Shown here one piece after another: positions 21,810 through 36,429 of a DNA stretch of 64,000 nucleotides. Below the pieces are notes generated by a model. It worked only from the letters and a program-made list of their open reading frames with translations. It searched no databases and had not been told where the DNA came from. Position 1 is the stretch's first letter. Each line of letters begins with the position of its first letter. The DNA is from an uncultured Pseudomonadales bacterium (GTDB lineage Bacteria; Pseudomonadota; Gammaproteobacteria; Pseudomonadales; Balneatricaceae), in the NCBI GenBank assembly GCA_943787595.1, contig CALSNA010000002.1:310467-374466 (forward strand), in the 5' to 3' direction. The position numbers were made by a program, and so were the translations under genes.

Positions 21810-22356
21810 TACTGAATAGCAAACCGGGATATGGCGGGGCACCCATACAATATCCGCCCTTCTAAATCCAGAGCATCCCGATATTCTATCTTGCAGATCA
21901 CCACCAGTACTTCCAGAATAGAGATGTTGGTAATTAGGAAATGCCCAATATAAGGGAGCACATCGGCCTCCAGTGAGATCCAGACCCTTTGGACATGACC
22001 CTGGCTCCAGCAGCACTATTTATGCTGCCAACATTCTCTGGTCTGATGCCAGAAGGAATTTTCAGCAGTGCGTCTGGTAATATGATGTTACTTTATCTCT
22101 GCGGGATCTCTGCGGAGTCCAGCTGATTGCTCAGGTTGAGCCGGGCCTGATCTCTTGCAGTTCTGGCCGGAGCCAGTGACACTTCAGGGTACACGCCCAG
22201 AGCCAGGGTTTTTTTCTTGCCAGCAAAGCAGTATTTTAGTCGCCAGTATCGGGAGCAGTTGAGTTGTACCAGCAGGTGCAGGCCAGCGCTATCGGCCAGT
22301 TTATAGGGTTTGTCTTTGGGCCAGGCCTGTTTAACGGTGGTATTGGGCAGTGGCAT
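21810..22356 (-). pseudogene. Truncated, frameshifted P4-type tyrosine integrase (N-terminal part only)
   Basis: ORF 22093-22356 (MPLPNTTVKQAWPKDKPYKLADSAGLHLLVQLNCSRYWRLKYCFAGKKKTLALGVYPEVSL...) is near-identical to the N-terminus of the intact integrase at 34963-36180. DNA homology continues to about 21810 in broken frames. The catalytic C-terminal domain is absent. Confidence 0.85.
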
Positions 22357-22506
22357 TGGGGGTACATTTATGGAGCCATGTTATTCGTACCCCAAATACC
22401 CATGGATGACAATAGACACTAGTGGACAGTAATAAAAGAATATCCAAAAAAAATCCCGTAAAAACGGGACTTTATGGACGATTATGGATGCTACTGGTTT
22501 TTAATT

Positions 22507-22521
22507 TGGTGCCCAAGAGAG
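22507..22521 (-). other. attL-like partial copy of the tRNA-Leu 3' end (left junction of the intact island)
   Basis: TGGTGCCCAAGAGAG here versus TGGTGCCCAGGAGAG at 36343-36357 inside the tRNA (14 of 15). Similarity stops abruptly at 22521/22522. Confidence 0.75.
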
Positions 22522-22582
22522 CACACACAAGTAGATATTAATGTGCTGATTTATATGATTATTTATATTTTAATATAAATTT

Positions 22583-22604
22583 ATACCCCCAAAAATACCC
22601 CCAA
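22583..22604. repeat. ATACCCCCAA direct repeats (candidate integrase arm-type sites, left arm)
   Basis: TTATACCCCCAAAAATACCCCCAATT lies about 60-100 nt inside the left junction. The same motif recurs at 36211-36240 next to int. Confidence 0.5.
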
Positions 22605-22722
22605 TTAATATGGCAATTATAGCTGATGGGATGGTTATTGATGCTTAATCATCCAATTTTATATTATATTTGTTTCACTAAACATGTTTGTAACGATATT
22701 ATTGACCCATCATCATTCATGA

Positions 22723-23895
22723 TTAAGTGTATGGCACTACTTGATGTGAAATTGTAGGCAAATCGCATTGAACATCAGAATCTAACACTACAACTGAAGC
22801 ATATTTTGCTCTTGTTATCCCAACATAAAATTTTGCTCTGGCTTCATCTGTCAGTTTTGACTCCATATCTTTAATCCATTCGACCATAGGCTTGGTCGGG
22901 TATAGTAATACATTATCATATGTTTTACCTTTTGAATCTCCATAAGTAGACACGGGAAAATCATCTTCAACACTTACATTTGAACTCCATCTTAGTTGTG
23001 TTACATCTCTACTCATTAGAAACTTTCTTATATTTTTAGGAGCAATCCTAAATACTCCCTTCTCAACATTCTGATTACCTTGGCATGCGATACAGTCACA
23101 TGGTTCAGTCTTTGGAAAGTTTCCATATATTAAAGAGGAGTAGTTGCATATTACTTTAGGATTTCTATGTGAATACTTTAGTGTTTCTGTATCCACCTCA
23201 CAACTTATTCGTTTACCAAGCTCATTTTCAATGAATTTTTGCACATTACCAGAACCATATTTTTTATATTTTCGTGAGAAATGAGTTTTATACGTTACTT
23301 GTCTAGGATCACCAACAAGTGTTAGCGATATATTTGAACACAGAAGAAGCTTGATAATATCAAGATCATAACCAACCATATCTTGAACTTCATCTATGAA
23401 TATATAGTCATAGATTTTTTCAAGTCTTCTAATTAACTTTTCGTTAGACACCCTATTTACCTCTAACGAAAATATGGAAATTTTATCTGAATATATCTTC
23501 CTATCAGATGTAAAGTAGTATTTTATCGGGTTACTTTTACCCCAGTAAATGGTTTGGCCCTTGCTATTTTCTAGCAGCTTACCCTCTGAATTGAACTTTT
23601 CACCAGACTTATTTTTTACCAAATAAAACCCAATATTCCATTTATGGGTCTCAGGTAATAACTGGCTTTGATATGGACGAACCATATGCCTAAGCAGAAA
23701 CGAAAACCATGTTATAACTTCTATAGTTTCAGGGCAGTATCCTTTCCTATATATTAGCTTTGACCTTATTTCTGCTGCGTTTGATTCTGTAAAGGTCGTA
23801 ATTAACACTGGTTTAGGTGAAAGTTTCAATGCCTCATTTACTAGTGTTGTCGTTTTGCCTGCCCCAGCAGCAGCTATGTATAATTTATTACCCAT
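22723..23895 (-). CDS. gajB: Gabija GajB, UvrD/PcrA-like superfamily-1 helicase
   Basis: From MGNKLYIAAAGAGKTT (Walker A), through YIFIDEVQDMVGYD (Walker B/motif II), to YVGITRAKYASVVV (motif VI). The ATG at 23895 overlaps the gajA stop (ATGGGTAA), indicating translational coupling. The ORF-track start 23955 is an upstream extension. Confidence 0.8.
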   Translation of the reverse strand: MGNKLYIAAAGAGKTTTLVNEALKLSPKPVLITTFTESNAAEIRSKLIYRKGYCPETIEVITWFSFLLRHMVRPYQSQLLPETHKWNIGFYLVKNKSGEKFNSEGKLLENSKGQTIYWGKSNPIKYYFTSDRKIYSDKISIFSLEVNRVSNEKLIRRLEKIYDYIFIDEVQDMVGYDLDIIKLLLCSNISLTLVGDPRQVTYKTHFSRKYKKYGSGNVQKFIENELGKRISCEVDTETLKYSHRNPKVICNYSSLIYGNFPKTEPCDCIACQGNQNVEKGVFRIAPKNIRKFLMSRDVTQLRWSSNVSVEDDFPVSTYGDSKGKTYDNVLLYPTKPMVEWIKDMESKLTDEARAKFYVGITRAKYASVVVLDSDVQCDLPTISHQVVPYT

Positions 23896-25510
23896 TGCAC
23901 CAAGAAATTGCATCAGATATATACTTAGGGTACTTGAAACGAATATTAGATTCAAAAATTTTTAGTGCCCACTTGGTCTTATTATTTTTCATATAATTAG
24001 ATACCCACTTATGTTCTGTATGTTGAGTATCCAAGCCTAATTCTTTAATTAGAATCATAATATCATCCTTATTTGCATTAACAAATTGTGGCTCTAACGT
24101 ATTTAATACATCATTATTGTCTGCACAAATTTTTATACATTCACTGTTTAGGTAGGATTCGTACTTTCTGGCTATATTCTTTTCGTAATTCCCATCATTG
24201 TCAGTGATCACACATACGCTTTTACTTAACTTCTCACCAAGCTCTAAAAAGCGCTTAAAGCTTAAACCAACTGAAATCACATCAATTCCGTTTTCAATGG
24301 GCAAGTTGCCATCATTCGAATCCATATAAGCTCGCTGAAATATAAGCTCATCTGAGGCCCCTTCCAGAAGAACAGCCTTTTCACATAAAATCAGTCTTAA
24401 GGTTTGATAACCAGGGAGCTTTTTGAAGAATTCATAGGTGCTTTCACTTAGAGATGATAGCCTACTGACCTTACAATCATGAAGAAGGCTTAAATTCTCT
24501 AGGCCCAATTTATTAGACACGTAACTACTGTGGGTTGAGATGATTAACTGACGATTCTTACATTTTTTAGATATAAGCTTTATAAGCTGATTCAACTTAC
24601 TATGAGATAAATGATTCTCTGGTTCCTCAAGCAGAACGACATTGGATTCTTTACTTTTCTTATGTTCAAGAGCCAAACAGGTTTTAATTATACATTGTTC
24701 TCCTTTGCCTATTTGATGAAAAGGAACATTATCTAGAAATGTTATCAAGCTTGTTTCCCACGAGTTTTGACTTTCCAAATCAACAGAAATACTTAGTTTT
24801 TTTTTGGTTACCTCAGTTTTTTCAGTAATTTTCTTATTAATACCTTTTATTGAATCGTCATCTAAAAAAATCTGTTTTAATTTGCGATAAGCTCGAGAAA
24901 ATCCAACTTTCTCTTCATCATCAAGTTCATTTTTGATAATTCTAGATATATACACATCTGATCCATTGTTATACTTCGTTGAAGTTGAGTCGATTAGAAC
25001 TGATTTAATCGGTATTGATCGACTAACTACTGTTTCACGATTAAATCCTTTCCAGACTACTTGGTAATACTCCATTGGTATTGTTGTTATATTTTCACCA
25101 CTTTCAATCAAAGCTTCATAAGAACGCTTATATCCTTCATCAAACTCTACAGTTAAAGAAACACCTTCAGCTCCTGTTTTTTTATGATTAAAATTTCCTT
25201 CCAAGTTAACATCTGTACAAGAAGAAAAATATAACTCGATAACAAATCTAGGTAGATCTGGATTTTTTCCAGCATCCAAATCAGTTATGAACTTTTCAAT
25301 AATATCATTATTGAATAAATATTGGTTGAGATTATGCCTTAAATATTTGTTTCCAATCATACCTGTTAAAACAAGATTGATTGCTTCTAAGATCGTTGAT
25401 TTACCTGATTCATTATCTCCAACTAATATATTCACACCTTGTTGAAGTGGAAAAGTAAAGCCCCCTTTGAAGACTTTATAATTTTCAATATATAGCTCTT
25501 CAATAAACAT
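23888..25510 (-). CDS. gajA: Gabija GajA, OLD-family ATP-dependent endonuclease (ABC-ATPase plus Toprim)
   Basis: N-terminal MFIEELYIENYKVF...ILVGDNESGKSTILEAINLVL (Walker A). VVLLEEPENHLSH (Walker B/D-loop). C-terminal Toprim AVLLEGASDELIF ... VCVITDNDGN. An OLD nuclease followed by a UvrD-like helicase is the Gabija (class 2 OLD) architecture. Confidence 0.85.
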   Translation of the reverse strand: MFIEELYIENYKVFKGGFTFPLQQGVNILVGDNESGKSTILEAINLVLTGMIGNKYLRHNLNQYLFNNDIIEKFITDLDAGKNPDLPRFVIELYFSSCTDVNLEGNFNHKKTGAEGVSLTVEFDEGYKRSYEALIESGENITTIPMEYYQVVWKGFNRETVVSRSIPIKSVLIDSTSTKYNNGSDVYISRIIKNELDDEEKVGFSRAYRKLKQIFLDDDSIKGINKKITEKTEVTKKKLSISVDLESQNSWETSLITFLDNVPFHQIGKGEQCIIKTCLALEHKKSKESNVVLLEEPENHLSHSKLNQLIKLISKKCKNRQLIISTHSSYVSNKLGLENLSLLHDCKVSRLSSLSESTYEFFKKLPGYQTLRLILCEKAVLLEGASDELIFQRAYMDSNDGNLPIENGIDVISVGLSFKRFLELGEKLSKSVCVITDNDGNYEKNIARKYESYLNSECIKICADNNDVLNTLEPQFVNANKDDIMILIKELGLDTQHTEHKWVSNYMKNNKTKWALKIFESNIRFKYPKYISDAISWCNG

Positions 25511-25699
25511 AATACTCCTATATTGTCTCTTCGTATCATAACCATTGTGTAGAAAAGGATTCCATCTAAAACACTACTCTTTCCACAATAATTAGGTCCA
25601 ACCAATGTAACGATACACTTAGGTTCATTACCCAAGTGTATCGTTAATTAAAAGCATATTTAATAGCTATTCTTCAGTTTTAGCTCCCTTATTACCAAG

Positions 25700-25863
25700 A
25701 ATTGTAGGGATAACTAATTTAAGTCTTGAGAGAGTCGACGTTTGCGTCCACGGTAGGCATCACGCTACTTGGCTAAAATAATTCCTTTTCTTTGATGTTC
25801 TTTAGTCAGCGCTTGTTCAAATTCAGAAAAATCGCCCATCACGGAAAGCGTTAAATTTGTCAT
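25700..25863 (-). pseudogene. Vestige of a serine recombinase (resolvase/invertase) gene
   Basis: The reverse-strand frame reads (M)TNLTLSVMGDFSEFEQALTKEHQRKGIILAK-stop-RDAYRGRKRRLSQ. This resembles the resolvase helix-E region (..GALAEFER.LI.ER...G...AK..G...GRK..L). There is no catalytic N-terminus. Confidence 0.35.
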
Positions 25864-26079
25864 GAAAGTATCAGGATATAATCTATTATCCCAAAAAAAA
25901 AGTGTCAATAAAGCGAAAGATATATTCTAATCTGAGGAGTTTTGGCAGAATGGCTTGACGTTAATTTGAGATATGCCACATCTTAGTATTAGCTAACCTA
26001 AGTAATCAATATCAAAGCATAAGCCAAAATCAAAGTATGAAAATATGCGTTAAAAGCAATGATGGTTAAGGGCCAGTTC

Positions 26080-26502
26080 TCAGAGTAGCCTGCTTATCGA
26101 ACTAAGTTGGCGAGCGATAATGTTAGGTTTGAATATCCCAACAAGCGTACCAGTAATCTGTTGGTCGATGATGACGTTTTCTATCATGCCAGTGATGTGC
26201 AATATATCGGGTTTGCTGCTTGATTTATAATTGTACCAGGTGCGCCTGCTTATATTTAAATGGGCACAAAACCCAGCTATATGCATAGGTCTGGGCTTAT
26301 TAATGGTTGCTATAGTAATCTTATTTCGATAACAAAAAGCCTTGTGTGCCTGTAGTGGGTTATCTTCAACCCACTCAAAATAGTTAACCGCTGCACTCCA
26401 TAGTTGTTCTGCGCTTTCATACTTCTTTTTTGGACCTGCTGGCATAGTTCTAAGCATCCATAGCTTATTACCTTTTTTAAATGAAGTTGAAGATTTACCC
26501 AT
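26080..26502 (-). CDS. Small terminase subunit-like DNA-packaging protein (P22 gp3-type)
   Basis: KKGNKLWMLRTMPAGPKKKYESAEQLWSAAVNYFEWVEDNPLQAHKAF resembles the N-terminal half of P22 gp3-type TerS as I recall it (KGN.FW...P.KFESPE.LW.A..EYFEWVE.NPL). 140 aa. Confidence 0.6.
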   Translation of the reverse strand: MGKSSTSFKKGNKLWMLRTMPAGPKKKYESAEQLWSAAVNYFEWVEDNPLQAHKAFCYRNKITIATINKPRPMHIAGFCAHLNISRRTWYNYKSSSKPDILHITGMIENVIIDQQITGTLVGIFKPNIIARQLSSISRLL

Positions 26503-26642
26503 ATTGTTAATCCTAAATACATCAGACTAATTTGCTACAAAGCTTTCTCCAATAAAAGCCATACTAAACAAACACTTAAGATTCTAACATAAATATTTTA
26601 ATGTCGGAGGTATTTATCTCAAAGCAGCATATTACCAAATGC

Positions 26643-26668
26643 AAAAAAGAGCCACCAAATAAGCAGCT
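26643..26668 (-). terminator. Candidate intrinsic terminator after the C39 gene
   Basis: The reverse strand reads AGCTGC-TTATTTG-GTGGCT followed by CTTTTTTGC. The stem is 6 bp including two G-U pairs, followed by a T6 run. It lies 33 nt downstream of the C39 stop. The stem is weak. Confidence 0.35.
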
Positions 26669-26700
26669 CAAAGGCTAGGTTTACTAGCTAAGTGTGTTCT

Positions 26701-27318
26701 TTATCTGAGGGCTAGGGGCAATGTTGGCAGACTGCTTACTACAGGAGACTTAAAAAAGTCATTATTTGTGGTTGTATGGCCGTTTGGCACAATCACTAAA
26801 GCCTTCCCTTTTAGCGTATCTTTTACTTGCCATAGCTCATTGAATTGATGAACCGTGAATGTCCTGTTCCCCCACGATGGGTCTGCCAATGAAACGTGTG
26901 TATTGCTGATACCCTTTAGCACTGAAAAATGGTCGTTGTCTCGATATTTGAGGTAGAGCAATGCCGGTATTTTGATCTTCTTCAGGGTGTCAAAATCAAT
27001 GGATAGTCCAACTGCATTAAAGCCAAACTTTGTTGCTGCTTGTTTTAAATCTGAGAATGAAGCCGTATTGTCATTTGCTATTTCGTTAACAATCTTGATT
27101 ATGTCTCTTTCGTAGACTTCAGCACCATAATAGAATCGTAGAATGGTAGCCAAGGCAGCCGAACCGCAAGACTCGTCAAGGTCTTGTTTCTCGATCTTTT
27201 GATCTCTAATTGATTTCCAAGATTGAATAGTATTATGTATGGGCGTAGACGATATTAGGTTGTATGCCTTAATCTGGCTGGATAGCAGTAGTAGTATTAA
27301 AGCGACATATCTAGTCAT
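26701..27318 (-). CDS. Free-standing, signal-peptide-bearing C39-family cysteine peptidase (predicted periplasmic)
   Basis: Sec-type N-terminus MTRYVALILLLLSSQIKA. C39 catalytic motifs: Q-x5-C (KQDLDESCGSAALATILRFYYG), His (NDHFSVLKGI) and Asp (SLADPSWGNRTF). There is no fused or adjacent ABC transporter. Confidence 0.8.
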   Translation of the reverse strand: MTRYVALILLLLSSQIKAYNLISSTPIHNTIQSWKSIRDQKIEKQDLDESCGSAALATILRFYYGAEVYERDIIKIVNEIANDNTASFSDLKQAATKFGFNAVGLSIDFDTLKKIKIPALLYLKYRDNDHFSVLKGISNTHVSLADPSWGNRTFTVHQFNELWQVKDTLKGKALVIVPNGHTTTNNDFFKSPVVSSLPTLPLALR

Positions 27319-27617
27319 TGTTGTTGATCTGGTGGGTAAATTATTGTGTCCATACCAGCAGGGAACATAAATGATAATAAGCCAGGTTTAGTTAATGTCA
27401 CTCCAACTCTTATTGCAGGCGGTTCACCATCATAATGACAATCTGCTACTACCCCACCAATTCCCTCTACCTCATAATCGAATAAACAGTACAGTGATGT
27501 TTTTTCTAAATTTCTTTTCATTTCTGAGTAGGGTATTGATTCAGCTTTTTTTAATGCGTCAGACAATACTTGTCTTTCTTCACTAGTTAGTTTTTCTAAT
27601 CTACTTCCATAACTCAT
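27315..27617 (-). CDS. Hypothetical 100-aa cytoplasmic protein (no recognisable motif)
   Basis: Intact ORF with no signal peptide or TM segment. Its stop overlaps the C39 start (ATGA, 27315-27318), indicating translational coupling. Confidence 0.6.
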   Translation of the reverse strand: MSYGSRLEKLTSEERQVLSDALKKAESIPYSEMKRNLEKTSLYCLFDYEVEGIGGVVADCHYDGEPPAIRVGVTLTKPGLLSFMFPAGMDTIIYPPDQQQ

Positions 27618-27637
27618 AGCATCAATCTATATTAATT

Positions 27638-27675
27638 ATTGCCGACCTATATCCATTCTAATATAAATCGGCAAT
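27638..27675 (-). other. Hairpin directly after the 115-aa gene (possible attenuator or RNA-stabilising stem)
   Basis: ATTGCCGA (27638-27645) and TCGGCAAT (27668-27675) form an 8-bp perfect inverted repeat with a 22-nt loop. It starts 8 nt after the stop at 27683. No T-run follows. Confidence 0.35.
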
Positions 27676-27682
27676 GTAAGTT

Positions 27683-28030
27683 TTACCTCCAGAGCGCTAT
27701 ACGGCGATGTCGTTGTGATCCCTTTACACCTACTCTATAAGTAGTTAGCTGGAGATGTGTTCTTCTACCTTGAAGCAGCCCACTTGTAAAGTTATGGTGT
27801 GCAGAATGATAACCAAAAACGTAACCACGACTACCAAATCTAAAATGTCGATTCCAGTAGTCGCCCTTGGTGCTATCCATTTCTTGAGGCGTTAGCAGCT
27901 CAATCTGGCTTATATCGGCAGAACTACCGAAGGCATAAGCTAGACTATCATTGGCACTATTGGCCATTGCCGCATGACTGCCAAACACAGTCATTAGCAT
28001 GGTTAATAGTACAATTTTAATGTGTTTCAT
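27683..28030 (-). CDS. Sec-exported 115-aa protein: signal peptide, acidic pro-region with a double-glycine-leader-like motif, and a highly basic, aromatic 58-59-aa C-terminal part
   Basis: MKHIKIVLLTMLMTVFGSHAAMA / NSANDSLAYAFGSSADISQIELLTPQEMDSTKGD / YWNRHFRFGSRGYVFGYHSAHHNFTSGLLQGRRTHLQLTTYRVGVKGSQRHRRIALWR. I recognise no family. Confidence 0.65.
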   Translation of the reverse strand: MKHIKIVLLTMLMTVFGSHAAMANSANDSLAYAFGSSADISQIELLTPQEMDSTKGDYWNRHFRFGSRGYVFGYHSAHHNFTSGLLQGRRTHLQLTTYRVGVKGSQRHRRIALWR

Positions 28031-28101
28031 AATTGAAGATCCTTTATAATATCTCTCGATTAATTTGGTGTTAATCTATGTTTTTATGAGTTAATCACCT
28101 C

Positions 28102-28746
28102 CTATGGGTTTAGCTTGTGAAGCCATTTCAGACTGATGTTAGAACCTGTATAGTCGCTAATATCGGTCTGAACCTTTAAATTCAATGTCCTTTCTTCGCT
28201 CACTGAATAAACTATGCCCAGCTCTAGTTGTGTCTGTGATGCGCGAGTGCTATTTTCACTGGATTGAATGAAGTTAAGATTTAAGCCAGCACTTAGGCTA
28301 ATTTCATTGTTCACAGCAAAGCCAAGGGCTGGATTGATAAACCATAAGTCATTAGTGGTTGATCTTTGAATGCCTGTTGTAGTCGATAACACTATGGGAT
28401 CACTACTTAGATAAGCTGTTAAGCCGACCATCTTAGTTTTTGTTTTGGATAGCTCCGCAAATCCCAGTAAGGCAGTTGTGTTACTACCAGAGAATAACTT
28501 GCTGTTGATTCCAATAGTTGCATTGTCTCCATTGGTGGCACGTGCATACGCTTCCGTATTGTTCGTTAGTCCATAGCGTATACCTAGAGCCTGACTCGTA
28601 TTGTTCGCGCTGTAAGCGTTAAAATAGTCCGCACTCAGCTCTATAGTTAAATCATTCTTATCAGGTAGAACATCTATTTCCAAGGGTAAATCGGCCATAG
28701 CATGGCTTGATATAGCCAGTAGTAAAATATACCTAAGTTTTCTCAT
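28102..28746 (-). CDS. Small outer-membrane beta-barrel protein (about 12 predicted strands)
   Basis: Signal peptide MRKLRYILLLAISSHAMA. Repeated alternating-hydrophobic strands follow (LTIELSADYFNAY, ALGIRYGLT, TALLGFAELS, MVGLTAYLS, LWFINPALGFAV, ISLSAGLNLNFI, QLELGIVYSV, LNLKVQTDIS, ISLKWLHKL). Confidence 0.65.
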   Translation of the reverse strand: MRKLRYILLLAISSHAMADLPLEIDVLPDKNDLTIELSADYFNAYSANNTSQALGIRYGLTNNTEAYARATNGDNATIGINSKLFSGSNTTALLGFAELSKTKTKMVGLTAYLSSDPIVLSTTTGIQRSTTNDLWFINPALGFAVNNEISLSAGLNLNFIQSSENSTRASQTQLELGIVYSVSEERTLNLKVQTDISDYTGSNISLKWLHKLNP

Positions 28747-29324
28747 AGGTCACTTTGTCTTGTTGTGTTCTTGTTTTAAAGAAGATACTTACTTCAGCAA
28801 TCCATTGATCCAGGTTTGTGAAGTCATGGCCTCCACCCTGAATACTGATATGTTCGCAATTCGAGTAATAGCCAATTACATCTCGAATAATTAAGCTCGT
28901 CTCCAGTCTGCGCCAGTACCAGTATATTTTGTGGCTTGTTGATCTCTATTGCTTCCGACTCTAGAGACTTGAGCTGTTTAACAGCATGGGGTAAGCCCCA
29001 CTCTGACGGCAATTTACCTAATCCGTTAAGTACGTCTCCCTGCTTTAGAATGGGGCTTTCACTGGGAAACACTGATGGATTAAGCAATACAACCGGAATA
29101 TTCAACTTTTGAGATAGTATAGTCGCATAGAAGCCACCTAATGAATGGCCCACTAGTGCAACACGATCCCCCATATCCTTAATGCGTCCTTTTATGCAGT
29201 CCATAGCATGAAAGGGCATGACAGGGACGCGCATCACCTCAGCTCCCAGGGAGTCAATTAATAAATTTCCTTTTCTACCGTTTGGCCGACCCAGGAAGCC
29301 ATGAAGGTACAATATCTTAATCAT
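28733..29324 (-). pseudogene. YqiA-like alpha/beta-fold serine hydrolase (UPF0227), reading frame broken near 28890
   Basis: MIKILYLHGF ... VALVGHSLGGFYAT (nucleophile elbow) ... LAQTGDEL. In the +1 frame it continues IIRDVIGYYSNCEHISIQGGGHDFTNLDQWI (catalytic His). This is colinear with E. coli YqiA (QQTGDEVLDYRQAVAYY...GGNHAF). The listed ORF 28824-29405 ends prematurely, before the His. The restored frame ends at 28733, overlapping the next gene start by 14 nt. Confidence 0.65.
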
Positions 29325-29506
29325 GGGAATGACCCCCACGACTAAACATTGTAAAGATGATGTTTGTTGATGGTGCATGACTGCAACAAAACCTAGCCGT
29401 TGCAATCAGCAAATTGATATACTCGCTGATAGCCATATCTGATGTCCAATATCAGTGTTTGGTTAGGGTCAGGCAAAAGTTAGCGGCTTTTGCTTGGCCT
29501 GTTTTC

Positions 29507-29535
29507 GTTATACGTTGTTCTATTTGCTTTGTCAA
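29507..29535 (-). promoter_or_regulatory. Near-consensus sigma70 promoter facing the five-gene module
   Basis: The reverse strand reads TTGACA (29535-29530), a 17-nt spacer, then TATAAC (29512-29507). It lies about 175 nt upstream of the YqiA-like ATG. A 7-bp hairpin (GCAAAAG/CTTTTGC, 29473-29493) lies in the predicted leader. Confidence 0.45.
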
Positions 29536-29791
29536 TAAATTATGTATGGGTCTCCACAAGCCCCAGGATAGCCTTCAGGCGATTTTTTATAATGCAGCCA
29601 TACTAAAAATTAAGGTAATAGCCTTTTAACTTTCCCGTAAACTACCCGTCCTTCAGAGCCATTAATAGACTCGTTTTGTAAGCTAAACCTACCCCCAACC
29701 TTCCCCCTAATTTTAGTTTTACGCTAACGCTTCGTTAAATTGTGATCGATGTGTAAATACCCCGCTATTAACACAGTCTCGAGGTAGAGAG

Positions 29792-30619
29792 TTAAGCCAC
29801 ATTTAGGTACTCAATGGGTGTCATATCATTAAGCCCGTCATGTGGTCGTTCGTGGTTGTATAACTGTATCCAGTCATCCGTGATTTGCCTGACCTCATCG
29901 AGGTTGCTGAACAGATATAAATCCAATACATCTTCTCGGTAAGTGCGATTCAATCGCTCAACATAACCATTTTGGTAAGGCTTACCGGGCTTGATAAAAT
30001 CAATGTATATATGGTGATGCTCAGCCCAGGCAGCTAACTCATGCGCGGTAAACTCAGGCCCATTGTCACAACGTATGCGCTCTGGATAACCTCGCCATGC
30101 TGCAATCTGATCCAGGTAGCGAGTGACTCGGTCAGCTGTGATGCCAGAGTTAATATCGATACCTAACACTTCTCGATTAAAGTCATCCATAACATTAAAG
30201 GTTCTAAAGCGATGGCCGTGTTGCAGTACATCACTCATAAAATCCATTGACCAACACACATTTAAAGTCGGTGGCACATTCAACGCCAGCGGGTGTCGAC
30301 TGGGTAAACGCCGCTTGGCTTTTCTTCTCATATTGAGCTTAAGCTGCAAATACACGCGATAAATACGTTTGTGGTTCCAGTGATGACCTAAAGTTCGTAA
30401 TCGCTTGCGACACTTCGGAAAACCCCAACGAGGATGTGTATCCACCAGGGCCAGCAGTGTATCAATCAGTTCAGTATCATCACAGCGTATGGGCTGATAG
30501 TAATAAGCTGTACGACTCAAAGCCGCTGCCTGACAACACAGCACAATGCTGGCAGCAAATTGCTCACGTAGCTGATCAACCCAGGCGCGACGATCCGCTG
30601 CTGACCTTACAGCTTTTTT
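29792..30619 (-). CDS. IS3-family transposase OrfB (DDE integrase domain), expressed by -1 frameshift from orfA
   Basis: THPRWGFPKCRKRL ... WSMDFMSD ... DNGPEFTAHELAAWAEHHHIYIDFIKPGKPYQNGYVERLNRTYRE, the DDE/rve motifs. The frame is open upstream to the slippery AAAAAAG at 30613-30619. Confidence 0.85.
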   Translation of the reverse strand, partial: KKAVRSAADRRAWVDQLREQFAASIVLCCQAAALSRTAYYYQPIRCDDTELIDTLLALVDTHPRWGFPKCRKRLRTLGHHWNHKRIYRVYLQLKLNMRRKAKRRLPSRHPLALNVPPTLNVCWSMDFMSDVLQHGHRFRTFNVMDDFNREVLGIDINSGITADRVTRYLDQIAAWRGYPERIRCDNGPEFTAHELAAWAEHHHIYIDFIKPGKPYQNGYVERLNRTYREDVLDLYLFSNLDEVRQITDDWIQLYNHERPHDGLNDMTPIEYLNVA

Positions 30620-30867
30620 ATAATGTCCTCTTGCATTTGGCTTTTTAAGCTCAAGTCAGCATACATCTGCTTTAGACGGCGGTTCTCGTCTTCCAGCTCT
30701 TTAAGTCGTTTAACATCCGAGGCTTCCATACCACCGTACTTACTTCGCCATTTATAGAATGTGCTGTTACCAATGCTGTACTTGCGGCACAGTTCTGGGA
30801 TTGGCGTACCCACCTCAGCTTCCTTCAATATCCCGACAATCTGGGTTTCGTTCAGTCGTTTGCTCAT
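30607..30867 (-). CDS. IS3-family transposase OrfA (HTH)
   Basis: MSKRLNETQIVGILKEAEVGTPIPELCRKYSIGNSTFYKWRSKYGGMEASDVKRLKELEDENRRLKQMYADLSL is the classical IS3 OrfA. It ends IIKKL-stop across the A6G heptamer. Confidence 0.9.
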   Translation of the reverse strand: MSKRLNETQIVGILKEAEVGTPIPELCRKYSIGNSTFYKWRSKYGGMEASDVKRLKELEDENRRLKQMYADLSLKSQMQEDIIKKL

Positions 30868-30939
30868 CGTAAAAACTCCTTCGCATCGTTCGCGATTATA
30901 GTATTTTCTACGTTTGAGCTGTGCTAGTTTAGGGGGTAC

Positions 30940-31422
30940 TTACAGATGCAATTTATCATGCAACTCTTCAGCTAGATAACTTTTCACAAAAGGTAACTCA
31001 ACCCCAGAACCATAAGCGTTTAAAAAAAGTGTTGTGTACCCGAAAAAACGTCCGATTGGACTTTTAATCAATTCTACGTTTTCAATATTGTTTAAGATTA
31101 GGGTATCAATTCTCTGAGTCAAAATACCACTTTGCACTTTTACAGATTCTTCGCTTATCCAAATTTTTACAAAAAATGGCTCAAAAATCGTATGTAGGTC
31201 TTTAAGAACATAGATCGCAGGAAGCACAACTAAACTTAGCAGAGTATCTTTTTGAAAATTCGTACCCACAACTTCTGTACCAATGTACTCAAACACGACA
31301 TAAACAATAACTAAACCTAATAATCGGCATAATATCTCGATTATTGCTTCAATAAACGGAGCCAATTTTACAACCTCAAGTTTTTTCAATTCCAAGTAAA
31401 CTCCCATTCGTTTATCTTCCAT
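30940..31422 (-). CDS. Membrane-anchored bacterial PH-domain (bPH_2 / YdbS-YdbT-like) protein, 3' end altered by the IS insertion
   Basis: Two N-terminal TM helices, then WISEESVKVQSGILTQRIDTLILNNIENVELIKSPIGRFFGYTTLFLNAYG. This matches the bPH_2 pattern (.G.l.r....ipl..I.nve...s...r..G.g.l.i). The stop codon (30941-30943) lies inside the IS terminal repeat. Confidence 0.65.
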   Translation of the reverse strand: MEDKRMGVYLELKKLEVVKLAPFIEAIIEILCRLLGLVIVYVVFEYIGTEVVGTNFQKDTLLSLVVLPAIYVLKDLHTIFEPFFVKIWISEESVKVQSGILTQRIDTLILNNIENVELIKSPIGRFFGYTTLFLNAYGSGVELPFVKSYLAEELHDKLHL

Positions 31423-31447
31423 TTTTTACTTTCTGCTTTTCTACACT

Positions 31448-31492
31448 GAGAGATAGGAGAGATAGGAGAGATAGGAGAGATAGGAGAGATAG
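31448..31492. repeat. Five perfect tandem copies of the 9-mer GAGAGATAG (iterons)
   Basis: Read directly: GAGAGATAG x5 with no spacers, at 31448-31492. This lies between the DUF3987-like gene stop and the bPH gene start. Confidence 0.9.
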
Positions 31493-31672
31493 TAGTATTA
31501 ACAAGGCTTGTAAACCTCTCCACAAATGTCGACATAAGAGAGATATGATTTTACCAATTAGTTATCTCGCCAATAATCTCGCCATAATATCTCTTGCTAC
31601 AGGCTAGGTAAATAAAGCTTTATCGCTATATCGCCTATCTCGCTATAGTTAAGTGTGGTTTGTTATCTCTCA
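31448..31672. other. Putative satellite replication origin (opposed iteron sets flanking an A/T-rich spacer)
   Basis: Besides the 5x array there is a degenerate copy AGAGAGATATG (about 31527-31537). Inverted copies are TTATCTCGC (31562), AATCTCGC (31575), ATATCTCT (31588), CTATCTCGC (31635) and TTATCTCTC (31664). It lies immediately 3' of the replication genes. Confidence 0.5.
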
Positions 31673-32939
31673 GAGTATAAATTGTTGGTCGCCTGCCACC
31701 ATTCTTACTTTCACCCTGTGACTGGTTGATCTTGGGCGGTGTGCTTTCTAGCAGTAGCTTTAAGGCGCATTTAATGTCTTTCCCCCCCTTTCTGTTAAAG
31801 AGGTCAACAATATCATTCTGTGTGCATTGTCCCTTGTCTGATATTAGATTATGTATTCTATCTGCCATTTCATTATGTTTCTTAAATTCTGCTTCCTGTT
31901 CACCAGTTGAAAATATATAGCCGATTGAAGCCCACCAGTAATGAATAATATGCAATGCAGCATTAAGATGGTTAATACTGATTTCCTTTTTCCTCTCCAT
32001 TATGGCGAAAAGCATTGATACCATTAACAAATATTTTGTTGTTCTAGTTAAAAGCTGCTTTTTCTTTTCTGTGCCTTTGGGTTCTCTAAATTTTTCATAC
32101 AAATTATCAAATTTATTTTTAAAACAATCCTTAAATATCATTACTGGCTCTTTATTAACAAATCTCATTATTTCTTCAAGCTCATCAACTAAACCATCCT
32201 TAATATTATTCGGTGTGCGCTTGGGTCTGGGTACATATTTATCAAGCTTCATATTGCAAATCATAAACCGATTTAAAAAACCATTGGCCATATCAACCGA
32301 TTTCACCCTGTTTAATAATTCTGTTTTTGTAACATGCCCCATCATAACCAAGTGAGGTCTAGTGCATTTAAACTGATCGTTCTTGGTTGTATTGTCCAAA
32401 TCTTCACCATCATGCAAGTTCCTTAAAATAGATGATAATGTGGAGCCTTCGCGGTTACATGCTGTTAGCACCTTCGCAAATTCAGAGTCGATTGTTAGAA
32501 CTCTTTTATCTTTGTTCCCTACGTCATAGTCCCTCAATACCTGCATAAGCCCTTCACCACTATTGAGTCCGTTACTGATTCTTTTGGGGTTATCACCAGT
32601 CTTCTTGCTGTACATCTTAAATATGGCTTTAACAAGCGTCTCTGATGTTCCCTTACCTGAACCAGTATTACCCACAAGCAAAAATGAAGGTCTAGCATCT
32701 ATATCATAGTTACCCCAATGGCAAGTTATCCTCTCCCTGCCAGTATAAGCAGAAAGATACGCTAATACGTTAAGTGTAACGGCTATCTCTGATGCCTCAG
32801 AGTTGGTACAAGCTGCATTTACCATGTCTTGCAAAAATGAAGGTAAGCCTTTGTCCTTAAATATACCTGGTTCTAACTCAGGTGGTGCTTTCACTGTGTC
32901 TAGCTCAGTATCAAAGTCGTTTTGAGTATTGTTAGTCAT
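31635..32939 (-). CDS. DUF3987-like P-loop NTPase (satellite/P4-alpha-type replication helicase candidate)
   Basis: 434 aa with Walker A LLVGNTGSGKGTS. It overlaps the upstream primase zinc-ribbon gene by 4 nt. This position and size are typical of DUF3987 proteins in P4-like and PICI elements. The family call is from context and memory. Confidence 0.6.
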   Translation of the reverse strand: MTNNTQNDFDTELDTVKAPPELEPGIFKDKGLPSFLQDMVNAACTNSEASEIAVTLNVLAYLSAYTGRERITCHWGNYDIDARPSFLLVGNTGSGKGTSETLVKAIFKMYSKKTGDNPKRISNGLNSGEGLMQVLRDYDVGNKDKRVLTIDSEFAKVLTACNREGSTLSSILRNLHDGEDLDNTTKNDQFKCTRPHLVMMGHVTKTELLNRVKSVDMANGFLNRFMICNMKLDKYVPRPKRTPNNIKDGLVDELEEIMRFVNKEPVMIFKDCFKNKFDNLYEKFREPKGTEKKKQLLTRTTKYLLMVSMLFAIMERKKEISINHLNAALHIIHYWWASIGYIFSTGEQEAEFKKHNEMADRIHNLISDKGQCTQNDIVDLFNRKGGKDIKCALKLLLESTPPKINQSQGESKNGGRRPTIYTLRDNKPHLTIAR

Positions 32940-33445
32940 TTGTTAATGTCACATTGCAAACTACGTTCTTGTCGGCTTCCGCTTATATTCTTCCCATTGA
33001 TACCGTATGCGTTCATAAAGTTATTTTTGATTAACTGATCTCTAATCTCGTTTGATCTGAAACCAGCTTGTATAGCTCTTAGTCTTTGCTTTTGCTGTAT
33101 AGGTTGAAAACTACTTACCCTGCTTTGGTAAATAGCTATTATGGTTTGTTCTTGCTGTAGCTCTTTAGATAGCCTCCTAGCATCCCACACTGACATAACA
33201 GGCTTCTTGGCGGTTTGCTTAGGTTCTGGCTTTTGTGGGAACAGGCAGCGCATATTGAGGCCCACGGCGTTAGTAATTTCCCTTGCTGTACAACCAGCCC
33301 AACACTTTAATAGAACGCGCCCATCATCCAGCTCAGTGATAGCTAGACTGGCATTTCGATCTTGATGTGAAGGACAACACGCTAACCAGTTCGCTAATTT
33401 AGTGGACTTTACTTGCTTGAGCCTTTGCAAAATATCATTAATCAT
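32936..33445 (-). CDS. Primase-type zinc-ribbon protein (P4 alpha N-terminal-like; no catalytic primase domain seen)
   Basis: WLACCPSHQDRNASLAITELDDGRVLLKCWAGCTAREITNAVGL matches the CP.H.D..PSL.I......L..C.AGC pattern of primase zinc-binding domains. ATG at 33445; the ORF track starts at GTG 33457. Confidence 0.65.
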   Translation of the reverse strand: MINDILQRLKQVKSTKLANWLACCPSHQDRNASLAITELDDGRVLLKCWAGCTAREITNAVGLNMRCLFPQKPEPKQTAKKPVMSVWDARRLSKELQQEQTIIAIYQSRVSSFQPIQQKQRLRAIQAGFRSNEIRDQLIKNNFMNAYGINGKNISGSRQERSLQCDINK

Positions 33446-33554
33446 ATAAACCGCCACGGGAGATTGCTTGTAAGCCTGAATAATTACCTAGGCTTTGAGT
33501 CCTAATCAAAACGACACTAGCTTCACCATAACCAATATTCGGCAGTAAGCTTTT

Positions 33555-33815
33555 TCATGTCTGGGAATCTTGTGTGGTGACAATAGGCCTGGATGACCGA
33601 ATACGTTGTTCAATCCAGTTATTGATTTCCGATTCCAGCCAACCGCTGGCCCGGGGTCCAAGCTTTATCGGTGCCGGAAATTGATTCCGGGCAATGAGCT
33701 GGTGAGCGTGGGAGCGACAAATCCCGACGCGCTTTTGCACATCGGGCCAACGTAAAATACTGTCGATGGTCGTAGAATCTTGATGGGGTGTTTGTGTATG
33801 AACGTGGGTAGTCAT
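33555..33815 (-). CDS. alpA: AlpA-family (prophage CP4-57-type) transcriptional regulator / excisionase
   Basis: ILRWPDVQKRVGICRSHAHQLIARNQFPAPIKLGPRASGWLESEINNWIEQR is the canonical AlpA/MerR-like HTH signature. Confidence 0.85.
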   Translation of the reverse strand: MTTHVHTQTPHQDSTTIDSILRWPDVQKRVGICRSHAHQLIARNQFPAPIKLGPRASGWLESEINNWIEQRIRSSRPIVTTQDSQT

Positions 33816-33969
33816 GTTTCATTCTCTTTAGACATCTTTATTAGATATACAATGTCATAAAGGAATGGCCTTAAATAGGTAGGCAGGTTCAATATACTTA
33901 CAGGGGAATTGGAGCAAATGGGTGTAGGTTTGCCTAACCTATGGGAATTGGCAGTAATTAGGGGTTAGG

Positions 33970-34902
33970 TTATCTTGAACCTGGTGTTTTTGGCGCACCT
34001 CCTGTTGGATTCCAGTTAGCCACTTTTGCTATTTCGTTGATGGCTGTGTTACTTGGCTGACCGTCACCTTTAGTTAATCCATATTGTTCAGCATGATCTC
34101 TAAGCCAGCACTCAAGATTATGTTTAACTGATTTACCTTTATCCTGATATTTTTCATCCGAAGTAACCGCCAGCCATGCATTAACAGCCGCAGCTAACTT
34201 GGGGGCATAATGAGGCGACTGCTTGTTCAGATATGAAGGCGTGGGTTGCCTTGAGTGTTCTTTTGGCAAGGCATTACCTTGCACATCTGACTCCAGCCAT
34301 TTTTGCAGCTCTGCTATTCTATCTGACCGGATAAAAATATCTGCAACCAGTGGGGTAATGTTTGTGATCTGTAATTGCTCTTGCACTTTAGTGATAGCAT
34401 CAATGTCGGTCATGTCGGTTGTTAGATTTTCATCAACCGCTGTATTATCAGTTGATTGACATATTTGATAAGCTTCACCTTGAATAAAAACACGGTCAAT
34501 TGGACCAATTTTCCTGTCGAGAAAACTTAAATCCTTCGATAACTCTGCCAGAATTGGGCTAATATTAGTCCATGGAATAATGCTTTTTTGCGTATCATGG
34601 ATGTGATTCACATGATTGGCAGGTAACATGTCTCCCTCAATGACATTCGTTATGGTCATCACGGATTGTGGATATAACTTGTTGTTGGGTAAATCAGCAA
34701 AACCATTGAAAGGTTTTACGGTGTTTTTATCTAAAGTCCTGTTTGCATTGAGTTTACAAATATAGGTATGTTGTAGTTGGATGGAAACACTCAGGCTACC
34801 ACGGCCTGTATAGGCTAAAAGTTTATCAAGAGGAATATTCCAGCCTAGGCGATTAAATGACTTAACAATGCCGGATAGAGGTTCGTATTTGCTTGAGTTC
34901 AT
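33970..34902 (-). CDS. Hypothetical 310-aa protein between int and alpA
   Basis: Intact ORF on the same strand as the island genes. I recognise no motif. Confidence 0.5.
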   Translation of the reverse strand: MNSSKYEPLSGIVKSFNRLGWNIPLDKLLAYTGRGSLSVSIQLQHTYICKLNANRTLDKNTVKPFNGFADLPNNKLYPQSVMTITNVIEGDMLPANHVNHIHDTQKSIIPWTNISPILAELSKDLSFLDRKIGPIDRVFIQGEAYQICQSTDNTAVDENLTTDMTDIDAITKVQEQLQITNITPLVADIFIRSDRIAELQKWLESDVQGNALPKEHSRQPTPSYLNKQSPHYAPKLAAAVNAWLAVTSDEKYQDKGKSVKHNLECWLRDHAEQYGLTKGDGQPSNTAINEIAKVANWNPTGGAPKTPGSR

Positions 34903-34962
34903 AATATTATTCTGTTGATTGGTAAAATCGACTATTGTAAATGGGTGATGTAGTCAATCATT

Positions 34963-36180
34963 CTAGTGGCCGGGATTTAACTGATTGCCAGCTAATTTAG
35001 TGCTGTATTCCAGTTGTTCCAGATAGTCCGCCCACCACTGCATCATGGTGGCCCGGTCTTTCAGGTACTCCGCATGCTGGGTGTAGGCTCCACGCACCTG
35101 ATTGCGCTCCAGATGGGATAACTGGCGCTCAATGGCATCCGGATTAAAGCCTTCTTCATTCAGGATGGAGGATGCCGTGGTTCTAAACCCATGAGCAGTA
35201 GCCCGGCTCTTATACCCCATACGATACAGGGCATAGGTCATGGTATTCTCCGATATGGGTTTCAATCGACTTCGCTCCCCGGGAAATAACAGGGCATACT
35301 GGCCCGATATGGGCTTCAGTGCCACCAGTATGTCCATCGCCTGTTGGGATAAGGGCACCAGATGCTCAGTGCCCATCTTCATCCGTTCACCTGGAATGCG
35401 CCAAAGTCTGGCCTCCAAATCAAATTCGTGCCACTGGGCAAAGCGACACTCCCCGGGTCGCACAAACGTCAGCAACAGCAAGCGCAGGGCCAGCCGGGTG
35501 ACTTGATGGCCGTCGTAATGACGCAGTTGTTTCAGGAATTGCGGCAGCTCGGCTCTGGGTAATGCTGCACGGTGCTGTTTCTTTCTGGTTTTTAATACGC
35601 CCGTTAGTTCTGTGGCCGGGTTATAGCTGGCCCGTCCAGACTGAATGGCAAACCGGAATATGGCGGTACACCGCTGCAATATCCGCCCCGCCACATCCAG
35701 AGCATCCCGGTGTTCTATCTTGCGGATCACCGCCAGTACTTCTGGAGTGGTGATGTCGGTAATGGGGCGATGCCCCATGTAAGGGAGCACATCTGTTTCC
35801 AGTGAGGTCCAGACCCGCTGGGCATGGTCTTGACTCCAGCGGCCATGTTGATGCTGCCACCATTCCCTGGCCTGATGCTGGAAGGAATGTTCAGCATTGC
35901 GTCGGGCGGTATGCTTTTGCTGCTTTTTTATCTCTGAGGGGTCTACCTGATTGCTCAGGTTGAGCCTGGCCTGATCTCTTGCGGTTCTGGCCCGGGCCAG
36001 TGACACTTCAGGGTAAACCCCCAGGGCCAGGGTTTTTTCCTTGCCGGCAAAGCGGTATTTAAACCGCCAGTATCGGGAGCCGTTGGGGTGTACCAGCAGG
36101 TGCAGGCCGGCACTGTCGGCCAGTTTATAGGGTTTATCTTTGGGGCGGGCCTGTTTAACGGTGGTGTTGGTCAGTGGCAT
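34963..36180 (-). CDS. int: P4-type tyrosine integrase (DUF4102 arm-binding domain plus phage integrase catalytic domain)
   Basis: N-terminal KDKPYKLADSAGLHLLVHPNGSRYWRFKYRFAGKEKTLALGVYPEVSLARAR. Catalytic residues are in LLLLTFVRPGECR, HGFRTTASS and VRGAYTQ. It is adjacent to a tRNA gene. Confidence 0.92.
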   Translation of the reverse strand: MPLTNTTVKQARPKDKPYKLADSAGLHLLVHPNGSRYWRFKYRFAGKEKTLALGVYPEVSLARARTARDQARLNLSNQVDPSEIKKQQKHTARRNAEHSFQHQAREWWQHQHGRWSQDHAQRVWTSLETDVLPYMGHRPITDITTPEVLAVIRKIEHRDALDVAGRILQRCTAIFRFAIQSGRASYNPATELTGVLKTRKKQHRAALPRAELPQFLKQLRHYDGHQVTRLALRLLLLTFVRPGECRFAQWHEFDLEARLWRIPGERMKMGTEHLVPLSQQAMDILVALKPISGQYALLFPGERSRLKPISENTMTYALYRMGYKSRATAHGFRTTASSILNEEGFNPDAIERQLSHLERNQVRGAYTQHAEYLKDRATMMQWWADYLEQLEYSTKLAGNQLNPGH

Positions 36181-36210
36181 TGGGGGTACATTGATGAAGC
36201 CATGTTATTT

Positions 36211-36240
36211 GTACCCCAAATATACCCCCAAATACCCCCG
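36211..36240. repeat. (G/A)TACCCC(C)AAA direct repeats next to int (candidate arm-type sites, right arm)
   Basis: GTACCCCAAATATACCCCCAAATACCCCCG lies between the int start and the tRNA. The motif is shared with 22583-22604 and, degenerate, 22391-22410. Confidence 0.5.
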
Positions 36241-36342
36241 GATGGCAATAGACATGAATGGACAGTAATAAACGAACATCCAAAAAAAATCCCGCAAAAA
36301 CGGGATCTTATAGACGATTATGGATGTTACTGGTTGTTAGTT

Positions 36343-36429
36343 TGGTGCCCAGGAGAGGACTTGAACCTCCACGGCCTTGCGGCCACTAGCACCTGAAGCT
36401 AGCGTGTCTACCAATTTCACCACCTAGGC
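36343..36429 (-). tRNA. tRNA-Leu (anticodon CAG)
   Basis: The reverse complement is GCCTAGGTGGTGAAATTGGTAGACACGCTAGCTTCAGGTGCTAGTGGCCGCAAGGCCGTGGAGGTTCAAGTCCTCTCCTGGGCACCA. It folds as a cloverleaf with a long variable arm, anticodon loop TTCAGGT and encoded CCA. Confidence 0.92.

Follow-up and report, generated by a model that had tools for sequence, protein, structure and literature searches.

The stretch of DNA analysed here, called the window in the following, comprises 64,000 nucleotides from an uncultured Pseudomonadales bacterium (assembly GCA_943787595.1, contig CALSNA010000002.1, positions 310,467 to 374,466), and the subject is a cassette of four co-oriented genes that form a tight unit on its (−) strand. 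From the upstream end these genes encode an outer-membrane export barrel of the HmcD/NapF/FapF type (28102..28746, 214 amino acids (aa)), a precursor protein of 115 aa (27683..28030, ATG start), a soluble partner of 100 aa (27315..27617) and a Sec-exported stand-alone C39 cysteine peptidase of the NapP/FapD/HmcC type (26701..27318, 205 aa). A sequence-only reading of the 115-aa protein had proposed that it carries an internal motif like a double-glycine leader behind a Sec signal and is thus a candidate substrate of the neighbouring C39 protease. As discussed below, that interpretation is supported in all the computational tests, and the system has two further parts that had been overlooked, a FapF-like outer-membrane barrel encoded upstream and the 100-aa partner encoded downstream. 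We consider it probable that the 115-aa protein gives rise, by a two-step pathway, to a secreted bacteriocin-like peptide.

The open reading frame (ORF) of the precursor has exactly the position, length, strand and translation that the sequence-only reading gave. The N-terminus, MKHIKIVLLTMLMTVFGSHAAMA/NS, with the signal itself at residues 1–23 (27962..28030, (−)), has the basic n-region, the 12-residue hydrophobic stretch and the A-x-A site of the Sec signal that had been claimed; it is kept in all homologues, and signal peptidase would be expected to cut after A23. It is noted that this signal was assigned by reading the sequence directly. Next comes an acidic, Ser/Ala-rich pro-leader (residues 24–57, 27860..27961, (−)), supported by alignments, by position statistics over 86 precursors and by an unfolded low-confidence region in the predicted structure. 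It holds two blocks, with block 1 reading DSLAYAFG and block 2 being the double-glycine-type motif IELLTPQEMDSTKGD (27860-27904, (−)) in which the pro-region ends. With D57 taken as position −1, the register of the motif is I-15, L-12, T-11, E-8, M-7, T-4 and G-2, which reproduces the spacing and the GD end that had been reported. Relative to the class II consensus, the precursor fits at positions −15, −12, −8, −7 and −2, with Thr at −4, where some relatives have Val or Ile, and Asp at −1. The rest of the protein is the variable core (residues 58–115, 27686..27859, (−)), a putative toxin, which was rightly described as basic and Cys-free (net charge +11, zero Cys), has no repeats and is predicted to form four beta strands.

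A lone occurrence of such a motif is weak evidence, because a loose regular expression for it matches about 1% of such proteins by chance (about 0.6–1.4 per 100 proteins of the precursor's length), and therefore the case for it rests on conservation among relatives and not on the single occurrence. Close homologues of the precursor are 11 in total, all metagenomic, and in their alignment residues 1–57 are nearly invariant and the C-terminal parts fall into three unrelated classes. Alignment of homologues had been suggested as a check on the motif, and the motif turns out to be the best-conserved part, with the C-terminal part hypervariable. For the C39 protein we found 105 homologues with 35–94% identity, and a scan of species-representative genomes gave 552 C39 loci. 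Among the 80 loci that were fetched, about 35 unrelated ones have an ORF that is recognised by the leader hidden Markov model (HMM) next to the Sec-exported C39 gene, and these leader-bearing loci span Gamma-, Beta-, Alpha- and Epsilonproteobacteria, a metagenome-assembled genome of Saprospiraceae and Thermodesulfobacteriota.

The position statistics were derived from 86 non-redundant leader-bearing precursors, where −2 is G by construction, being part of the search pattern. Of the 86, 74 have a hydrophobic residue at −15, 75 have L at −12, 78 have S or T at −11, 75 have E at −8, 78 have M at −7 and 74 have T at −4, while position −1 is E in 33, D in 14, A in 14, G in 7, K in 6 and other residues in the remainder, and position +1 is mostly W, F, Y, L or V. 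The family motif can be matched position by position to the classical LSxxELxxIxGG leader, and in more distant relatives the aligned −2/−1 pair is canonical, namely GG, GA or GS. It could be argued that the double-glycine resemblance arose by chance in a small periplasmic or outer-membrane protein of an ordinary kind, as the chance rate of about 1% would allow. However, the motif is near-invariant in the 86 proteins, the C-termini of which are unrelated, the C39 gene is constantly adjacent, and a leader-only profile run against 1.84 billion representative proteins leads to 48 clusters, from which 43 sequences were retrieved and read, all 43 sharing one and the same layout. This explanation, to which we give virtually no probability, is refuted for practical purposes, and judging from the alignments the double-glycine-type motif of the precursor is real.

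The C39 gene directly follows the partner gene, downstream of the precursor, and its product matches Pfam Peptidase_C39 at 3.8e-22, confirming that a protease of this family is indeed a neighbour. The peptidase has a Sec-type N-terminus of its own, and its catalytic set Q45/C51/H130/D146 is invariant in 22 homologues. Its best NCBIfam matches are FapD and the pilus-associated FilB, with scores of 80 and 73 bits against cut-offs of 330 and 475 bits, respectively, where 330 bits is the cut-off of the FapD equivalog NF058616; by the FapD score the peptidase belongs to a family that is related to FapD and is not its orthologue. The barrel begins with the Sec signal ...SSHAMA/DLPL, and its AF2 model (pLDDT 79) has 12 strands, with the best PDB matches to FapF (5o67/5o68/5o65, E 1.5e-8, TMq 0.70-0.75) and a further match to the COG4313 channel Pput2725. 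At the sequence level the barrel has a weak match to PF13557, below the cut-off, and no match to a FapF sequence family in Pfam or NCBIfam. Since the protein has 214 aa with about 12 residues before the first strand, it is without a periplasmic coiled-coil domain. No genes of the ATP-binding cassette (ABC), membrane-fusion protein (MFP) or TolC type are present in the cassette.

The boundary of the core becomes evident when the window is compared with a cassette of another core class, class B, on the metagenomic contig L001. The DNA identity is 82–100% down to about 27860, about 40% over 27856 to 27329, and 82–98% again from 27328. The D57 codon is at 27862-27860 and the C39 start is at 27318. 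Because the identity drops after the D57 codon and recovers at the C39 start, the exchanged unit is exactly the core plus the partner gene (27319..27859, (−), bounded by the predicted cleavage site and the C39 start codon), and therefore the 5′ edge of the exchanged module coincides with the predicted cleavage site. At the protein level, the identity between the two cassettes is 92% for the barrel, 83% for the leader and 94% for the C39 peptidase, as against 33% for the core and 21% for the partner. The partner, which is exchanged together with the core and is a putative cytoplasmic immunity protein, has no signal peptide and no transmembrane (TM) segment, and the stop of its gene overlaps the start of the C39 gene (ATGA). 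The core and the 100-aa protein thus look like a module that is swapped by recombination and behaves like a toxin-immunity pair.

The same coincidence bears on the proposal that the pro-region serves to target or chaperone the barrel, or acts as an inhibitory pro-domain, and is left uncut by C39, with the peptidase processing another component such as the barrel, as in one model for FapD. The substrate of FapD is unknown and cleavage of FapF was considered possible (PMC5557850), and both the non-canonical acidic residue at −1 and the block D-h-A-F/Y-A-F-G, which has no counterpart in classical GG leaders, would fit such a role. By contrast, the module boundary lies exactly at the predicted scissile site, the motif matches LSxxELxxIxGG residue by residue, with GG, GA or GS in relatives, and the short N-terminus of the barrel contains no GG-leader-like segment, so that we regard this proposal as very improbable. 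Note also that D-[LM]-A-[FY]-A-F-G-x, the other conserved block in the pro-region (residues 28-35, 27926-27949, (−)), itself has the spacing [DE]-[LM]-x2-A-x-G-x, which is half a double-glycine motif; this block may serve as a second site or as a signal that targets the barrel, or it may be left over from a duplication.

The pairing of core and partner is regular. The class A core (window and L093) is paired with a protein of 99-100 aa, the class B core with one of 86-90 aa and the class C core with one of 147 aa, and each of these pairings recurs in at least two independent contigs. On L001, which is 24 kb long, three cassettes of classes B, B′ and C lie side by side (L001 1-8419): the two inverted class B copies have cores and partners that differ in the same central segments, and the class C copy has a truncated barrel and no C39 gene, which suggests active diversification and decay. 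Outside 1-8419 the contig carries a ThsB_TIR gene and a resolvase gene. Leader-only remnants were observed at L012 1882-2076 and L011 2006-2215, where precursor genes break off right after ...FDQQMREI; they lie in arrays in which several precursor-partner pairs precede a single C39 gene, and they look like the 'orphan' modules that are displaced in polymorphic toxin loci. Such arrays and remnants are typical of polymorphic toxin-immunity systems. A homology between the 100-aa partner and the class B partner of 88-90 aa, suggested by visual resemblance (..IRV.V......F.P..D..Y), is not claimed, the BLASTP E being 3.1.

Over the wider family, the cores are either hydrophobic and Gly-rich or basic, and the kind of core goes with the kind of partner. 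The product of the next gene has 1-4 TM segments in 17 of 20 cases with a hydrophobic/Gly-rich core as compared with 0 of 12 cases with a basic core, after which the next gene encodes a soluble protein (Fisher p = 2e-6, uncorrected for phylogeny).

In the predicted structure of the precursor, residues 1-46 are below pLDDT 50 except for residues 8-12, the confidence stays low until about residue 57, and a short helix at residues 48-53 over PQEMDS corresponds to the amphipathic part of the leader, while the core (residues 59-112) folds as four beta strands with pLDDT 70-81. Burial of the motif in a folded domain had been named as a ground for giving up the cleavage idea. Residues 1-57 are unstructured apart from the short helix, and because only residues 59-112 fold in the prediction, the cleavage site is not buried. 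When 12 basic cores from different cassettes are aligned, H79, F81, H92 and Q94 (precursor numbering) are invariant, a pattern more in line with a dedicated site for binding or catalysis than with a peptide that simply acts on membranes. The idea of an AHH/HNH-type mini-nuclease, taken from 'SAHHNF', was rejected: only the second His is invariant, with KPHRF in class B, the fold is predicted to be all-beta, and there is no Pfam AHH match.

An all-beta core could also belong to a structural surface subunit, that is, a Fap-like amyloid, a Fil-like fibre or a biofilm matrix peptide, and not to a toxin. Besides the predicted fold of the core, the best NCBIfam matches of the protease (FapD and FilB), the best fold match of the barrel (FapF) and the Gly-rich hydrophobic cores of many relatives can be cited in its favour. 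However, the scores of the protease are far under the cut-offs, the barrel is without the coiled-coil region of FapF, and there are no FapA/B/C/E genes and no Q/N-rich repeats in the cassette, whose ORFs are the barrel, the precursor, the 100-aa protein and the C39 peptidase. Moreover, co-swapping with a private cytoplasmic or membrane partner is not expected of structural subunits, and the leader HMM is silent in the C39 loci at the bottom of the list, which are presumed to be fap operons. A structural role is thus quite improbable in our estimate.

For the reading that we prefer, a secreted bacteriocin-like peptide, the pathway can be described as follows. In the first step, Sec would export the precursor and signal peptidase would remove residues 1-23, as the sequence of the signal suggests. 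In the second step, the periplasmic C39 peptidase would read the 34-residue acidic pro-leader via h-15, L-12, E-8, M-7, T-4 and G-2 and cut at G56-D57/Y58, a site to which conservation, homology and synteny point. Then, as suggested by fold and synteny, the FapF-like 12-stranded barrel would carry the basic core of about 58 residues across the outer membrane. Finally, the core would act as a toxin for competitors and the soluble 100-aa protein would be the producer's cognate cytoplasmic immunity protein, as the behaviour of the module and the precedent of hemocin suggest. The module of core and partner would be exchanged by recombination between the constant leader and the constant protease gene. 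We infer the cleavage, the export and the toxicity of the core; the strongest indirect support for the pathway comes from the module boundary, the family-wide conservation of the leader and the hemocin precedent.

Several observations weigh against this pathway. The residue at −1 in this lineage is D, E or K and not G, A or S, and the S1 pocket of a canonical C39 peptidase would refuse it. Moreover, a single C39 gene serves precursors with E, G and S at −1 in locus L017 and precursors with E and S at −1 in locus L022; with mixed −1 residues for one peptidase, it is therefore possible that the cut falls directly after G56 or that the P1 specificity is relaxed. Some columns of the C39 alignment separate with the −1 class (S53 vs A, K/R71 vs E/Q), a separation that is confounded by phylogeny. 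The 100-aa partner and the partners from other loci have no usable match in Pfam or NCBIfam, the best match of the precursor model among PDB folds has a meaningless E of 0.2, the core has no known toxin fold, and a profile of the basic cores finds no family among PDB sequences and Pfam; likewise the precursor has nothing usable in Pfam/NCBIfam. HmcB, an AAA/ABC-like ATPase, is an additional component of the hemocin locus with no counterpart in the cassette of the window, and the peptides of the Neisseria nap island are reported to promote autolysis, not to kill competitors (PMC11798529).

We now turn to the surroundings of the cassette, which is cargo of a P4-like island at a tRNA-Leu gene and adjoins a Gabija defence system. 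The island, of P4-like or satellite type, extends over 22093-36429, with the tRNA-Leu at 36343-36429, an integrase at 34963-36180 and AlpA at 33555-33815, and it also holds a CHC2 zinc-finger/DUF3987 primase-like pair (31635-33457) and a bPH_2 membrane protein (30940-31422). At 22093-22356 there is an 87-aa duplicate of the arm-binding N-terminus of the integrase, a probable mark either of the other boundary of the island or of a second, tandem island that has decayed. The Gabija anti-phage system is complete (22723-25510, (−); GajA 23888-25510, PADLOC E 2e-204; GajB 22723-23955, E 1e-118) and lies about 1.2 kb from the cassette in the same island. Directly downstream of the cassette, a 140-aa protein (26080-26502, (−)) has a phage DNA-packaging gp3 (small terminase-like) domain (PF16677, 3.5e-21), which is consistent with a phage-satellite lifestyle of the island. 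Just past the C39 stop, a hairpin with a T-run (26649..26669, (−)) matches the terminator consensus and is likely the end of the operon; note that in a scan for promoters and terminators the sites were no more numerous than in shuffled sequence, and only this hairpin is sensibly placed.

Upstream of the barrel there is a gene for a UPF0227/YqiA-like esterase (28824..29405, (−), PF05728 5e-16), which is present in all three L001 cassettes and absent from distant ones, being carried by the closest relatives only. In the window it has a one-base frameshift after ...GDELNYS, with the C-terminal 50 residues and their GGGHDF catalytic-His motif out of frame (28746-28960, (−)), and is either a pseudogene or affected by a sequencing error. 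An IS3-family element (29792-30867, (−); HTH_Tnp_1 orfA 30607-30867, rve orfB 29792-30544) is inserted just upstream of the esterase and the cassette.

Other cassettes were found on small plasmids, namely the Rep3 plasmid of L009, pTR11_4 of Acinetobacter sp. TR11 (L095) and pSCU-111-4 of Escherichia coli (L096, NZ_CP051731.1). The last of these is a 5.9-kb mobilisable plasmid of the ColE1 type from a healthy human and carries the full cassette (4691-5902 and across the origin), with a barrel, a precursor reading ...PLSETELDETTG/K, a multi-TM partner and a C39 peptidase, the genes of which are annotated as hypothetical or not annotated; this cassette was found in one of 5,426 complete E. coli genomes. 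On pTR11_4, an unannotated cassette of the same build has a leader-bearing precursor of 188 aa. Between this precursor and the C39 gene lies a multi-TM ORF of 108 aa (4978-5304, (−)), which is missing from the incomplete PLSDB gene table and would be the expected immunity-like gene.

Taking the parts together leads to a wider reading, which we hold tentatively and with slightly less than even confidence, that a periplasmic C39 peptidase and a FapF-like barrel make up a widespread, near-unannotated two-step secretion pathway for polymorphic peptide toxins. The route would run from Sec export through periplasmic removal of the leader to a small outer-membrane barrel, and the range would take in Gamma-, Beta-, Alpha- and Epsilonproteobacteria, Bacteroidota and Thermodesulfobacteriota. 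The address label would be a Sec signal followed by h-x2-L-[ST]-x2-E-M-x2-T-x-G-x, and this leader consensus would be the substrate motif for C39 peptidases of the NapP/HmcC type, of the kind that is missing for FapD, with peptidases of this type tolerating acidic P1 residues. With its small basic beta domain and the pattern H-x-F...H-x-Q, the core of the window would found a new toxin family whose site of action is the cytoplasm and against which small soluble immunity proteins protect.

If this is true, the periplasmic C39 class would gain a concrete conserved recognition motif, and a four-gene cassette would allow a direct test of what this class recognises. One secretion logic would be common to haemocin, the Nap island of Neisseria and the export of Fap amyloid, which have been studied separately, and the Sec signal would be a simple answer to the crossing of the inner membrane, a step left open in the Nap model. 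There would also be a large reservoir of unannotated modular peptide toxin-immunity pairs, one of which occurs naturally on the 5.9-kb plasmid of E. coli, and the basic cores would make up a new family within it. In addition, the pair of leader and barrel could be a compact export tag for small proteins in Gram-negative hosts.

It remains to compare the system with known ones, where in the literature we found no description of the architecture of a Sec signal plus an internal GG leader as such, nor of its spread. The leader of the window follows the logic and spacing known from class II microcins and class II bacteriocins of Gram-positive bacteria (L-12, E-8, hydrophobic residues at −7 and −4, and G-2), apart from the Thr at −4. 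In both cases the peptide is small and unmodified and has an adjacent immunity gene, putative in the window, and many relatives have Gly-rich hydrophobic cores and TM immunity-like proteins. However, the leader of class II microcins is at the extreme N-terminus whereas that of the window is internal, behind a Sec signal; their C39 is the cytoplasmic N-terminal domain of a peptidase-containing ABC transporter (PCAT) whereas that of the window is a free periplasmic protein without ABC domains; and the −1 residue is often acidic in the window family as against G, A or S in class II microcins. An identity as class II microcin is excluded, there being no PCAT/MFP exporter near the cassette. A paper on an Acinetobacter microcin describes a type I secretion system and is not relevant.

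With Fap the window shares Sec-delivered substrates (putative in the window), a periplasmic C39 peptidase and a dedicated 12-stranded barrel like COG4313. FapD, a periplasmic C39 peptidase exported by Sec, requires its catalytic Cys if secretion through FapF is to take place, and this periplasmic C39 class was described as 'yet to be characterised' by Rouse et al. 2017 (PMC5557850). A 2018 review noted fapD-fapF pairs in five other phyla (PMC6173800). The differences are that FapF has a periplasmic coiled-coil domain, which the barrel of the window does not have, and that no recognition motif is known for FapD, whereas the window system has a clear leader consensus.

The Neisseria nap island (NapF, NapP, NapA/B/C, NapI; PLoS Biol 2025) encodes small cationic GG peptides and has an immunity-like gene, and on either side of these lie the genes of the FapF homologue NapF and the C39 peptidase NapP. 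The authors proposed periplasmic cleavage followed by export through NapF; they also reported that the GC content of the central part of the island differs and that this part may have been inserted later (PMC11798529). The genes of the C39 peptidase and the barrel flank small peptide genes in the window as well. NapP, which has a Sec signal, is 44% identical to the C39 peptidase of the window (E 5e-47), and the N-terminal region of NapF matches the barrel of the window (E 4e-6) with the shared motifs ADLPL..D...DK and LG-RYGLT-NT. Given this kinship, it could be supposed that processing and export are the same and that the peptide acts on the producer population or on a host, by autolysis or eukaryotic lysis, with the partner modulating self-toxicity; synthetic Nap peptides indeed spared other bacteria and promoted autolysis, and NapC lysed erythrocytes (PMC11798529). 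However, the Nap peptides are unrelated in sequence and are without the architecture of Sec signal plus leader: as annotated they have no Sec signal, and the authors invoke a holin-like protein for the crossing of the inner membrane; their GG sites, unlike that of the window, are not embedded in an LSxxEMxxTxG motif; and NapA/B/C are alpha-helical and cationic, with no sequence similarity to the core of the window, which is predicted to be all-beta. Moreover, inter-strain toxin-immunity systems are typically marked by extreme polymorphism with partners that are swapped along, by tandem arrays and leader-only remnants, and by carriage on plasmids, and hemocin, with the same architecture, is annotated as a bacteriocin with an immunity gene. 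We therefore regard an action on producer or host as rather unlikely.

The reading as a precursor of a bacteriocin-like peptide finds its precedent in hemocin, for which our reference, found by a plasmid search, is plasmid p250 of Avibacterium paragallinarum (NC_005245.1). In RefSeq, the plasmid is annotated with HmcD, a C39 peptidase and an AAA ATPase, as well as with a 'hemocin structural protein' and a 'hemocin immunity protein'. Experiments have established haemocin of Haemophilus influenzae type b as a bacteriocin that has an immunity gene, reportedly those of Murley et al. in 1997 and 1998 and of Terry et al. in 2003. The hemocin structural protein reads MKKFFILLIAIIFSSASLA/SS...ATVLSQKEMSEVKGG/ARSPVYTCSVCG... 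and has the same design of a Sec signal and an internal leader as the precursor of the window. This leader, LSQKEMSEVKGG, which ends in VLSQKEMSEVKGG, is a canonical GG leader whose register, LSxxEMxxVxGG, is that of the window leader, and the leader HMM matches HmcA weakly (E 0.003). The two-step design with a leader behind a Sec signal, which the sequence-only reading called unusual, is not unique, since the annotated hemocin structural protein shares the design, which is the rule in this C39 subfamily.

HmcD is homologous to the barrel of the window (hhalign probability 96.8%, E 2.3e-10, 171 columns; BLASTP E 2e-6), the p250 C39 peptidase, which stands alone with an N-terminal hydrophobic segment, is 30.5% identical to that of the window (tblastn, E 3e-18), and FapD is the best NCBIfam match of both peptidases. 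Both systems have a small basic core, and in both a soluble immunity protein, putative in the window, is encoded directly downstream of the structural gene. A further likeness is that the hemocin locus is carried on a small plasmid. The differences are the following. The hemocin locus has another gene order (hmcD-C-B-A-I), and a counterpart of its HmcB-type ATPase was found neither in 26000-29900 of the window nor in the sister cassettes L001, L004, L009 and L093. The −1 residue is Gly in hemocin and Asp in the window, the leader of the window has the extra conserved block LAYAFG, the hemocin core is Cys-rich (CxxC...CxxC) and unrelated to the His-containing beta core of the window, and the two immunity proteins are unrelated. 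The design of the window is thus not unprecedented, hemocin having it and Nap and Fap using related machineries, while the acidic −1 residue, the cassette without an HmcB-type ATPase, the family of basic H-x-F...H-x-Q cores, and the breadth and polymorphism of the system look new.

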